DNA from: Escherichia coli
GTDB lineage: Bacteria; Pseudomonadota; Gammaproteobacteria; Enterobacterales; Enterobacteriaceae
Length of the DNA stretch: 64,000 nt
Strand: one strand, 5' to 3'
NCBI RefSeq assembly: GCF_045037415.1
Contig: NZ_CP173438.1
The position numbers are program-made. Shown here one piece after another: positions 35,401 through 38,400 of this stretch (within the stretch, counting starts at the first letter, position 1; each line of letters starts with the position of its first letter).

Positions 35401-38400
35401 CAGCGACGTCGGTAATGATGTTTTTCGCCGAGGTGCTTTTAACTGAGCCATTTGCATTAAAGACAGTATGGCTGGCACTGTATTTATTACTTTTGCTGTC
35501 CCAGTGCAACGTGTTATTGTCGATGCTCTGGAGAGCCTCTCCCACGTTATTGTATTGGCCACTTTGTAGATAATATGTGGGAGCTTTAAGCGTCCCGTCA
35601 GAGTTTATAACATTATCAGGATCATCATGATATCCTCCAAGCCTGTCGGATACAGACTTACTGATGGCATAAAGTTGTGATCCATTGATGGCATCGGAGC
35701 TGACATTATTGATGTCACCATTACCCATATTGACAATTTTGCGCTTTAAACTAGAGCTACCTACAGACACGGTATTGTCAGCACCTGCGGAAGAATTTGC
35801 ACCAATGGCGACTGCGTTATCACCATTTGCGGTGGTGTTAAAACCGAAAGCAAGGCTGTTTTTGCCCCCCGCATTACTGTTGTTGCCCAGTGCAATGGCG
35901 TTCTCACCCGCTGACCTGCTGTTACTTCCCAGCGCAATTGAATCAAGTTTGCTTGCCTCGCTGCCTTGACCTATAGCGATGGAGTTGGTTTCACCAGCGC
36001 TGGCGTTGTCTCCCAGCGCCAGGCTGGACTTCCCGATCGCATCCGCGTTAAAGCCAATCGCCGTCGCATTTTCAGCAGCTTCGCTCTCTGCACCCATAGC
36101 AATCGCGTTTGCTGCGCTGGCGAGAGATAGTCTGCCTAAGGCAAGGCTGTCTGTGCCGTTAGCAGCACTGTCGCGGCCTACGGCAATGGCGTTAGCCGCA
36201 GATGCAACGCTACTTGCTCCCAGCGCCATTGAATATTCTTTTGAGGCATTAGCATGATCACCGAGGGCGATGCTCATAATTTCGTAAGCTTGAGCCGTAT
36301 TTCCTAACGCAATAGTTTTTTCACCATCGGCAAGGGCGGTGTCCCCAATAGCAAGAGATGTAAAACCATTCGTCTTTGCGTAACGACCAAGAGCCATCGA
36401 ACGACCGCCAGTTGCTACTGAAGATGCACCCAGCGCGACACTTCTGTCACCTATTGCTTGTGCACTAACCCCAAAGGCCATTGATGCACCACCAATCGCA
36501 TGAGTTCGTGAGCCTATAGCTGAGCTGTACTCACCTTCAGCTATCGCGTCATAACCTAGCGCAGTGCTCGCACCAGAGCCATTGACAAAGGTATTTGCTT
36601 TTGAATTTTTACCGATAGCAACCCAGCCGTCACCTGCTGAGCCATTGCCATAATCCACTGGCTGCCCCTCGTAGTTATCAGCCAGTGCCCCAAATGACGA
36701 TAACAGCCCACCTGCAACCAAGGCAGAAATTAACAGCTTACTGCGCCCGCTCTTTTTGCCACGGCTCTTCGCCGTTTCGCTGGCGACGTTGTAACTGCCT
36801 GTCGCCGGATTCCAGATAACTTTAAATATTTTGTTCATTATTGATGCTCTCTATTCCTTGATATAAGCGCAGAAGCTGCATTTATTTTTTGTTTTTCCGC
36901 TGCCGGGTTTCAGCAGGTTGAACAGTGTCGAACTGAAGATTAGCCATATTGATGGACAACTTCAGATACTTCAGGTTATTAGGCGAGACGCCTTTTAATG
37001 TCAGATTAATGTCTTGCCATTGACCAGGCATTAATTGCAGAGTGGAATTCAGGGTGGTGTTGAATAGTAATTGTTGCCATTTCGCCAGAGCTTTGGCATC
37101 GGTGGGTTTCTCATTCCCCCATGTCGCATGAAAGCCAATATTTGATACGGGAACGCTTAATAAGTTAACCAGCGAAATACGAATGACACTGCCATTTTCA
37201 ACCGCATCAATAGCCAGCACCCGGCCTGCCAAACCGACCGAGCCGTTATTTAAAATGAAGTATTGGGTTTGTAGCGGGTTAAATTCGGTGAAGACAAATT
37301 CGTCCTGTTTTTCTTTGACTGTCTTTACAATGCTGGCAAGTATTCTGGTGCTGTTTGTGATATTATTTTGTTGTTTTTCAAACAGTTCTGCTTTATTTTT
37401 ATATTGTTCTTGTTGTTTCTCAAGCTCCTCTATTTTACTTTTTTGCAACTCTTGCTGTTTGGCAAGATCATCGATCAGACTCGCTTTTTCAATATAATCA
37501 CAGCCTGTTAATGTACCTAGTGAAAATATTGTTAACACGTTTAAAAGTGTTTTCATGCTCATAGGATGAATTCCTTTTCATAACCCCAATATGTTGATAA
37601 TTACGCCATATTCATTCTTCTGATGAATGTTTTTTATATATGTATTCGCAATAAAACTTATAAGAGATTTATTGAAATAATTGGTATTACGGACGTTTTA
37701 TTAAATGACAACTGATTTCAGTTTGTAGCGAATGTTATGAGTCGCGCGAATTTTAATGAGCGGTATCAATCAATGTCAAATGTTTAGTGTCTTAGGCTGG
37801 GGAGCGCAGGGAGATTTTATATTCATATAAATGATGTGTTGTGATGAAATTTGCTGTGTTTATGGGGAAAGATAAATAATCATGCATCATAATTCGATTA
37901 TTTATTTTTATGATTTATATATCACTTGTTGTTGCGCAACAAATTTTCAGATTTTAGCCTGCAAAAATACCTCAAACTCGAGGGGAAACTGAAACAGTTT
38001 ACGGTAAGAAAGACATCGTATTTAATGAGTGGCACAGGCTCCTGCATGTGCCAGCAGGAGCGAGTAAATCGTGAGTGGCAGTAGTTACAGCGACGAGAAA
38101 GGAACTTAAAACGCAGTCTTTGAGAACCCTGTCATCTCTTGCAGGCCCATTTCACGGCCCAGCGCGGTCATTGGGTGCACAACCACCAGTCCGCGAACAC
38201 TTTTTTTCAGTTTGCCCATATCAGCCTGCTCTTTTTTGGTGATTGCACGCTGGAACGGCATCTTCATCAGTTTCTGCGCTTCTTTGCTGAGTTTCTGGCT
38301 GTGAACTTCGCGCAGGCGAGCAATTTCTGCTTCCAGCGTGGCTTTCTCTTTTTCCAGTTCGGCATATTTGTCTGCGGCTTCAACCAGCGATAGATCGGCC

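Follow-up and report, generated by a model that had tools for sequence, protein, structure and literature searches.

An AT-rich intergenic region of Escherichia coli ST131 as a probable composite of the yibL transcript end and a silenced adhesin operon promoter

The trimeric autotransporter adhesins UpaG, EhaG and SadA are widespread in enterobacteria and silent in the laboratory, so that nearly all functional work on them has been done with artificial promoters. The ST131-type allele of the upaG/ehaG/sadA locus lies, together with the neighbouring yibL, at positions 32495–38468 of the 64,000-nucleotide stretch of E. coli DNA analysed here (the window; contig NZ_CP173438.1). An earlier note on this DNA had described the region preceding the lipoprotein gene as one long AT-rich leader with the composition of H-NS-silenced adhesin promoters, containing a palindrome without an assigned role. 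We consider it probable that the region is instead a composite intergenic control region, in which the end of the yibL transcript is followed by the silenced promoter of a sadB-like/autotransporter operon on the minus strand (Table 1). For experimenters, the analysis provides a probable location of the promoter, the limits of the AT-rich platform and one deeply conserved short box, which can be addressed by reporter fusions and pull-downs in ST131, a multidrug-resistant clone dominant worldwide.

Table 1. Features of the yibL–adhesin intergenic region and its flanking genes, in window coordinates.
Feature	Position	Strand	Details
YadA-like trimeric autotransporter adhesin gene, 1447 aa	32495..36838	-	Positional orthologue of upaG/ehaG/sadA
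SadB-type (DUF3251) lipoprotein gene, 226 aa	36882..37562	-	First gene of the operon; ORF and annotation
AT-rich tract	37300..38012		Continuous, GC about 0.28–0.34 (composition profile); presumed H-NS platform
Gap between yibL and lipoprotein gene	37563..38105	minus-strand genes on both sides	543 bp, exact gap
Predicted 5' untranslated leader	37563..37743	-	~180 nt, 28% GC
Shine-Dalgarno sequence AAGGA, lipoprotein gene	37572..37576	-	Conserved run
Predicted transcription start	37741..37745	-	G 37743 or A 37742, placed by the distance to the -10 hexamer
-10 hexamer TAAAAT	37755..37750	-	18-bp spacer; followed by G+C-rich discriminator TCGCGCG
-35 hexamer TTGACA, sadB/adhesin operon promoter	37779..37774	-	Promoter scan and conservation
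Distal box TCTGAAAAT	37951..37943	-	9 bp, ~208 bp upstream of predicted start; family consensus WTCYGAAAAW
Second, weak terminator-like hairpin and T-run, CCTCGAGTTTGAGG TATTTTTGCA	37960..37983	-	ST131 allele only, absent from other alleles
Palindrome	38038..38061	-	8-bp GC-rich stem, 8-nt loop; 45 nt past yibL stop
yibL CDS, upstream neighbour of the gap	38106..38468	-	ORF; identical DNA in RefSeq is YibL family ribosome-associated protein

The exact CDS boundaries, a GC content of 34.8% (49.4% for the window) and the absence of any Rfam match at E≤1 across 36500–39500 agree with the earlier description of the gap as non-coding, AT-rich DNA. Its longest ORFs encode 22–52 aa, and a sense-strand ORF running through it meets a stop codon in the allele of CFT073 type, as read from the alignment. 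That the gap is the upstream control region of the lipoprotein-adhesin operon was likewise upheld by gene order and annotation, the operon grouping being backed by the annotation of identical or homologous DNA. The upaG and ehaG loci share the order yibL, gap, lipoprotein gene, adhesin gene, lldP, with gaps of 557–560 bp compared to 543 bp in the ST131 allele. In Salmonella, the sadBA operon is flanked by the mtl and lld operons (Grin et al., 2014; PMC3953254); there too a SadB-type inner-membrane lipoprotein gene precedes the adhesin gene, at a distance of 44 bp. The ST131 gap was 100% identical in 566 complete genomes.

The low GC content is not evenly distributed over the gap. When the 93 bp adjoining yibL are left out, GC drops to 0.316 (37563–38012), with values of 0.28–0.32 in the upstream DNA and leader. 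The gap has 18.4 A/T tracts of at least 4 nt per kb (vs 10.5) and 87 TpA steps per kb (vs 51). The continuous AT-rich tract includes the promoter with its upstream DNA and leader, and takes in the initial ~250 bp of the lipoprotein gene as well. With respect to GC content, the gap falls in the lowest 10% of 543-bp segments of the window, which is not extreme. The window also contains a block richer in AT, at ~5.3–13.6 kb.

To define conserved positions, 16 homologous gaps from Escherichia, Salmonella and Pseudocitrobacter were compared; a genome contig scan with a single protein gave close relatives alone, and the distant loci were gathered via protein clusters. The homologous gaps are 40–71% identical to the ST131 gap (CFT073-type 71%, O157 46%, Salmonella 40%). 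With a threshold of at least 90% identity over 11 independent lineages, which 11% of the alignment columns reach, only four conserved runs were found: the distal box, the -35 and -10 hexamers, and the Shine-Dalgarno sequence. The two hexamers, the only conserved promoter, place it mid-gap and leave a predicted leader of only ~180 nt. The idea of one long leader thus has to be given up in favour of a leader of that length, ~260 nt of upstream DNA and a last part of ~70–145 bp that is the 3' end of yibL.

The promoter prediction proposed as a check in the earlier note gave a near-consensus sigma-70 promoter at 37779..37750, conserved in all 16 sequences. With a score of 11/12, TTGACA-18-TAAAAT was the best sigma-70 match that the promoter scan found in the region. 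TTTGAC is kept in at least 10 of the 11 lineages, and TA[A/G][A/C]AT follows TTGAC[A/T] at 17–18 bp in each of the 16 sequences. The upaG and ehaG loci also have the promoter, distal box and Shine-Dalgarno sequence conserved, and Salmonella sadBA carries TTGACA-17-TAGCAT with the box at 179 bp. From these patterns we infer that 37779..37750 is the operon promoter. A sigma-70 start usually lies ~7 nt past the -10 hexamer, which puts the predicted start near 37743; the literature consulted gave no mapped transcription start for any allele. An FNR-like sequence in the promoter spacer, TTGAT-ACCG-CTCAT, matched at 8 of 10 positions and is centred near -20; it is not kept in Salmonella, the organism with the reported Fnr effect, and was set aside.

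A promoter of this kind would be intrinsically strong and yet off in culture. We propose that it is off because H-NS, with partners, would polymerise across the ~700-bp AT-rich tract, covering upstream DNA, promoter, leader and gene start, and thereby silence the operon. In this arrangement, ~170 bp of AT-rich DNA, predicted to be partly curved, would lie upstream of the promoter with the conserved box at its far end, and a start near 37743 would give rise to an unstructured, 72% AT leader ending in AAGGA. Expression would require displacement of H-NS, either by antagonists that bind AT-rich DNA or by a factor that works through the distal box.

Composition, studies of hns mutants carrying other alleles and the response to TosR in CFT073 make H-NS silencing of this allele plausible. 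The regulatory regions of upaG (CFT073) and ehaG (O157:H7) are said to be under H-NS repression, and Totsika et al. (2012) reportedly found UpaG and EhaG to be enhanced in hns mutants; this evidence concerns alleles whose gaps share 71% (CFT073 type) or 46% (O157) identity with the ST131 gap. PMC5012682, citing Totsika 2012, names UpaG among the autotransporter genes that H-NS represses in uropathogenic E. coli, as the earlier note had stated for upaG. Overproduction of TosR in CFT073 raised c4423 (C_RS20890), the CFT073 homologue of the lipoprotein gene, by log2 5.1 (34-fold); TosR is a PapB-family regulator for which the authors predict antagonism to H-NS and Lrp. In a Salmonella fur mutant, STM3690 was down 4.2-fold and hns up 3.1-fold. 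The TosR and fur data bear on silencing indirectly. SadA was undetectable in cultured Salmonella (PMC3953254). The Salmonella gap differs from the ST131 gap in being only 40% identical and in the Fur and Fnr effects reported there, and our literature search returned no H-NS data on Salmonella sadA.

The H-NS-type composition claimed for the region holds in so far as the GC of 0.316 extends over several hundred bp of DNA overlapping the promoter, as against a mark of roughly 65% AT for H-NS-silenced regions; this GC ranks in the lowest 10% of the window only, and the high-affinity motif is not enriched. That nucleation motif, tCGATAAATT (Lang et al., 2007; PMC2094087), had one match in the gap at up to two mismatches vs 1.07 expected from composition-matched shuffles, at positions unconserved among homologues. 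Predicted curvature, calculated with our own script, an ad hoc measure and provisional wedge parameters, peaks at 37969 and 37853 above the window's 99th percentile; by the same ad hoc measure, bends recur near -225 and -110 in 6–7 of 11 lineages. The classical H-NS-silenced promoters proU, bgl, hlyE and pap have upstream and downstream AT-rich elements. The ST131 region resembles them in placing a strong sigma-70 promoter in an AT-rich stretch of several hundred bp, here with partial curvature as a prediction, that reaches past the start, and in serving genes that are horizontally acquired or allele-variable; it differs in having no predicted high-affinity site of the tCGATAAATT type. We regard the region as ordinary and largely known, a routine silenced and horizontally variable adhesin promoter, which leaves the current understanding unchallenged.

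The palindrome exists as described, with arms GCTCCTGC (38038–38045) and GCAGGAGC (38054–38061) in perfect complementarity, but it lies outside the adhesin promoter and is the 3' hairpin of yibL. All 12 lineages examined have a stable GC-rich hairpin 10–45 nt past the yibL stop, with differing sequences. In P. vendiensis, paired C>T and G>A changes preserve the stem, the loop differs, and UAAUUUUG follows the stem. As RNA in the yibL sense, the ST131 hairpin has a predicted energy of -15.4 kcal/mol. Like intrinsic terminators and REP elements, it is a GC-rich stem-loop shortly past a stop codon, and it is probably a weak intrinsic terminator or a 3'-end stabiliser of yibL. Unlike a canonical intrinsic terminator, and unlike the upaG/ehaG loci, it has no U-rich tail: the sequence after the stem, CUGUGCCA, contains 2 U in 8 nt, compared to 4–5 of 8 in related alleles. 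The ST131 hairpin may be an inefficient terminator, and transcription continuing from yibL could contribute to that of the operon. A second hairpin is found ~55 bp beyond the palindrome; by itself it is insignificant, since the terminator scan gave 1 site vs 1.3 expected. In the proposed composite, the ~70 bp past yibL would hold its 3' hairpin and the second, weak T-run hairpin would follow.

Several other readings of the gap were weighed against the composite control region. If the operon were expressed mainly by read-through from yibL, the gap would be an intercistronic spacer and TTGACA/TAAAAT incidental. All genes are indeed co-oriented, and the tail of the ST131 hairpin, besides lacking a U-tract, offers an alternative pairing with the loop (inverted repeat I7). 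However, the -35 and -10 hexamers are the most conserved non-coding positions of a very divergent region, a stable hairpin follows yibL in every lineage, with a second T-run hairpin in the ST131 allele, and yibL has a housekeeping, ribosome-associated role, in contrast to an adhesin reported to be silent in culture. We judge main expression by read-through to be quite unlikely. It is also unlikely that the palindrome acts as a DNA-level site (operator, recombination site or repetitive extragenic element) rather than as an RNA hairpin. This would fit the boundary between shared and ST131-specific sequence at ~38034, just past the stem, the better retention of loop than of stem letters in O157, and an apparent REP-like palindrome (GCCGCATCCGGCAA...) seen by eye at the equivalent place in K-12. 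On the other hand, the palindrome was found in 1827 of 5426 E. coli genomes with a single copy in each, and because of this single occurrence it belongs to no repeat family and was rejected as a REP element. The unrelated hairpin sequences at the same position elsewhere fit a structural RNA and not a sequence-specific site, and the compensatory stem change and different loop of P. vendiensis point in the same direction.

It is highly improbable that the gap encodes an RNA with a defined structure, be it a riboswitch, a thermosensor or a small RNA, or that it holds a small protein gene or a fimS-like invertible switch; these readings are largely refuted. The long leader, conserved in length at 160–199 nt in all lineages, might suggest an RNA element, but a known RNA family was rejected by the Rfam result given above, RNAalifold detected no common secondary structure in the leader (structure conservation index 0), and shuffled versions of the ST131 leader fold about as well as the leader itself (z = -0.9). 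An out-of-frame ATG at 37581 starts a 27-codon ORF over the ribosome-binding site, but ORFs in the gap are unconserved between alleles. As for a switch, the promoter is bracketed by perfect 9-bp inverted repeats (37716-24 and 37986-94); this repeat is allele-specific, close to chance expectation in 700 bp, and the inverted junction was present in none of the 575 genomes carrying the allele.

The distal box raises the question whether a dedicated regulator, rather than generic H-NS coating, is the main control of the operon. Such a regulator would bind at ~-208 and loop over ~17 helical turns to the promoter as activator, anti-silencer or co-repressor. The box, TCYGAAAA(W), is present in 16 of 16 homologous gaps from three genera, with near-random flanks. 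Its distance to the -35 hexamer is 170–172 or 179–184 bp in every lineage, and this spacing (SD 4.3 bp) is tighter than that from -10 to ATG (SD 11.2 bp) or from the yibL stop to the box (SD 20.5 bp). The ST131 and E. ruysiae/E69 lineages, which are independent, have the distance shortened by ~11 bp, one helical turn; in ST131 it is 172 bp compared to 182–183 bp in upaG/ehaG. The distances cluster in helical phase (R = 0.60, nominal p ~0.02), by a statistic that takes no account of common ancestry and depends in essence on two deletions. A dedicated regulator would also be compatible with H-NS silencing, and inspection of consensus sequences matched the box to no known factor. We consider main control by a dedicated regulator possible but doubtful. 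Within the composite control region, the box is tentatively put forward as a candidate regulator binding site or fixed anchor for an H-NS bridge, ~17 helical turns upstream of -35, where a factor might switch the operon on.

The search for a factor covered several candidates. SlyA has the consensus TTAGCAAGCTAA, and TTTGCAGGCTAA at 37954-65, beside the box, matches it at 10 of 12 positions; such 12-mers occur at chance rate in the window (4 vs 5.5 expected), and the site is not kept outside E. coli. For sigma-E, the -10 element TCTGA fits, but the conserved GGAACTT 16 bp upstream, the -35 element, is absent. TGGCAC-like letters upstream of the box in some lineages recall sigma-54, but the -12 GC is missing. 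These two assignments were judged by inspection, as was the fit of the box to the IHF, Fis, CRP, Cra and OmpR consensus sequences, which was poor throughout. A literature search with the box string returned papers on CodY, a Gram-positive regulator with the box AATTTTCWGAAAATT; enterobacteria are not known to have CodY, and the likeness was therefore treated as coincidental.

In strain 4/4, an IS1 element has inserted naturally at 37928-37936, between the box and the promoter; 4/0 and 4/1-1 are close relatives of this strain. If the proposed reading of the box is true, the ST131 allele, with its spacing one turn shorter, and the strain 4/4 insertion would serve as natural test cases.

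The intergenic gap upstream of the lipoprotein gene is an already studied kind of control region, the AT-rich, probably H-NS-silenced region of a sadB/upaG-type operon. RefSeq annotation of identical DNA gives, in order, YibL, a DUF3251 domain protein, a YadA-like family protein and lldP; this part of the window corresponds to the upaG/ehaG/sadA locus. The position of its adhesin is equivalent to that of ehaG in O157:H7 and of upaG in ABU 83972 and CFT073. The window carries the ST131 allele, which was found at 100% identity in 566 complete genomes, O25b:H4-ST131 strains included, and shares only 68-79% identity with the alleles of other lineages. 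Adhesin length varies strongly by allele, with 1447 aa in the window, 1588 aa in EhaG of O157 and 1778 aa in UpaG of CFT073. In K-12 the whole segment has been lost, with the distal box discussed below, promoter, lipoprotein gene and adhesin gene all deleted; the yibL-lldP remainder (6631-7001 of the K-12 locus) has a AATTGGCCCTACCAATT palindrome upstream of lldP, presumably the LldR operator. The K-12 loss is also described in the SadB paper (PMC3953254), and an antisense overlapping gene, oloz5029, is reported to be embedded in ehaG of EDL933 (PMC9927249).

We gathered 16 homologous yibL-to-lipoprotein gaps, from nine E. coli alleles, Escherichia sp. E1V33, E. albertii, E. fergusonii, E. ruysiae, Salmonella enterica and two Pseudocitrobacter species. 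Gap length is kept across all homologues (486-566 bp). Identity to the window gap is 40-71%, so divergence is near-random over most of its length, and only four runs are at least 90% identical across 11 independent lineages (table).

Genes of the locus and conserved runs in the intergenic gap (runs at least 90% identical in 11 lineages)
Feature	Position	Strand	Remark
yibL	38106..38468	minus	upstream of gap
Intergenic gap, 543 bp	37563..38105	minus	between yibL and lipoprotein gene
Lipoprotein gene, 226 aa	36882..37562	minus	
YadA-like adhesin gene, 1447 aa	32495..36838	minus	
GAAAA	37951..43	minus	conserved run, inside box TCYGAAAA(W)
TTTGAC	37780..75	minus	conserved run
ATTA	37757..50	minus	conserved run, inside cATTA[A/G][A/C]AT
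AAGGA	37576..72	minus	conserved run

Two of these runs, TTTGAC and ATTA, make up TTGACA-18-TAAAAT, which was also the best sigma-70 match (11/12) in a mechanical promoter scan of the gap, a check that the earlier note had proposed. The layout TTGAC[A/T]-17/18-TA[AG][AC]AT recurs in 16/16 homologous gaps. This phylogenetic footprint is strong evidence for a predicted operon promoter at 37779..37750. From usual promoter spacing, transcription would start near 37743, giving a 5' leader of about 180 nt; the predicted leader is 160-199 nt long in all lineages, with a GC content of 25-35%. With the promoter in mid-gap, the term "leader" used in the earlier note is apt only for the gene-proximal third of the gap.

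The stretch from the -10 hexamer to the predicted start contains a G+C-rich discriminator, (C/T)CGCGCG (TCGCGCG in the window, 37743-37749, minus). Most Escherichia alleles share it with P. vendiensis; it is not conserved in O157, E. ruysiae/E69, Salmonella, E. fergusonii or P. corydidari. Such discriminators are typical of ppGpp/DksA- and supercoiling-sensitive promoters. About 20 nt before the lipoprotein start, an out-of-frame ATG opens a 27-codon ORF (37498-37581, minus) that spans the Shine-Dalgarno sequence and the lipoprotein start codon. This ATG is at about the same position in most lineages, and in P. vendiensis and E69/E. ruysiae the terminal TGA of the short ORF overlaps the lipoprotein ATG. 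It may have a regulatory role as an upstream ORF, or may have arisen by chance in AT-rich DNA.

Every part of the earlier note's observation was borne out. The GC content of the gap is 0.348 (0.316 when the 93 bp adjoining yibL are left out), compared with 0.494 in the window as a whole. Enrichment over the window is about 1.7-fold for A/T tracts and for TpA steps, and the AT-rich tract runs some 250 bp onward into the lipoprotein gene. By GC, the gap ranks among the lowest 10% of 543-bp windows, yet more strongly AT-rich DNA exists elsewhere in the window: a far larger block at about 5300-13700 falls to a GC of 0.25 in such windows. Bend prediction (an ad hoc wedge-angle estimate by our own script) gave peaks above the 99th percentile of the window at 37969 and 37853, and the same model places bends near -225 and -110 in 6-7/11 lineages. 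Composition and predicted bends are consistent with H-NS silencing. Against this, the H-NS high-affinity motif tCGATAAATT occurs in the gap as often as composition predicts, at positions that are not conserved among homologues.

EhaG and UpaG are both reportedly enhanced in hns mutants (Totsika 2012). The reported H-NS repression of upaG that the earlier note mentions agrees with a list of H-NS-repressed autotransporter genes that includes UpaG (PMC5012682). The sadBA-type operon of Salmonella is reported to be silent in culture (PMC3953254), and a near-consensus promoter that is yet silent implies repression. Overproduction of TosR, a PapB-family regulator whose authors predicted antagonism of H-NS and Lrp, raised c4423 of CFT073 by log2 5.1; c4423 (C_RS20890) is the lipoprotein gene there, and its place directly before upaG was confirmed. 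In a Salmonella fur mutant, STM3690 was down 4.2-fold and hns up 3.1-fold.

Other explanations for the gap were rejected. An invertible switch would leave inverted junctions, which were found in 0/575 genomes. For a structured RNA, the gap had no Rfam match, the leaders had no common secondary structure across lineages (structure conservation index 0), and the ST131 leader showed no folding advantage over shuffled sequence (z = -0.9). A small conserved ORF is also rejected, since the ORFs in the gap are short and none is conserved between alleles.

The palindrome to which the earlier note gave no role is present, as GCTCCTGC-N8-GCAGGAGC at 38038-38061, 45 nt downstream of the yibL stop. A stable hairpin occurs 10-45 nt past this stop in 12/12 lineages, with differing sequence. 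In P. vendiensis a C>T / G>A double change preserves the stem seen in E. coli, and the loop is different; its hairpin (z = -4.6) has a UAAUUUUG tail and is thus a classical intrinsic terminator. The element was found in 1827/5426 E. coli genomes, as a single copy in each, which rules out a repeated palindromic element. By inspection, what looks like a REP-type palindrome occupies the corresponding position after yibL in K-12. We conclude from these comparisons that the palindrome forms the 3'-end hairpin of yibL mRNA, probably serving as a terminator or stabiliser, and lies outside the adhesin promoter. The earlier interpretation was broadly right but imprecise.

The 72 bp adjoining yibL, hairpin included, are 93-99% identical across the 1827 genomes. 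From about 38034 on (37563-38033), identity of the ST131 allele to all others falls to 68-79%, which places one end of the sadB/adhesin-segment allelic replacement directly past the hairpin stem. The replacement removed the U-rich hairpin tail (U in 2/8 nt, versus 4-5 in related alleles). A second, weak predicted hairpin with a T-run at 37983..37960 (minus) is ST131-specific.

The one element outside every explanation offered is the distal box, TCTGAAAAT in the window, which every lineage has. Its distance to the -35 hexamer is 170-172 bp in ST131 and E. ruysiae/E69, about one helical turn below the 179-184 bp of all others. This distance has an SD of 4.3 bp, compared with 11.2 bp for -10 to ATG and 20.5 bp for stop to box; its helical phase was concentrated, with R = 0.60 (nominal p ~0.02, shared ancestry ignored). 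By inspection, the box fits poorly as a sigma-E, sigma-54, IHF, Fis, CRP, Cra or OmpR site; SlyA matched at chance level only, and resemblance to the Gram-positive CodY box was judged coincidental. A conserved box with fixed spacing is a modest lead and, as far as we could determine, a new one. Strain 4/4 (NZ_CP023826.1), also with the ST131 allele, carries a 768-bp IS1 between box and promoter (window 37928-37936; 838-1605 of its locus), with a 9-bp target duplication, GTTGTTGCG. The insertion increases the separation by 777 bp and is a natural test of the importance of the box.
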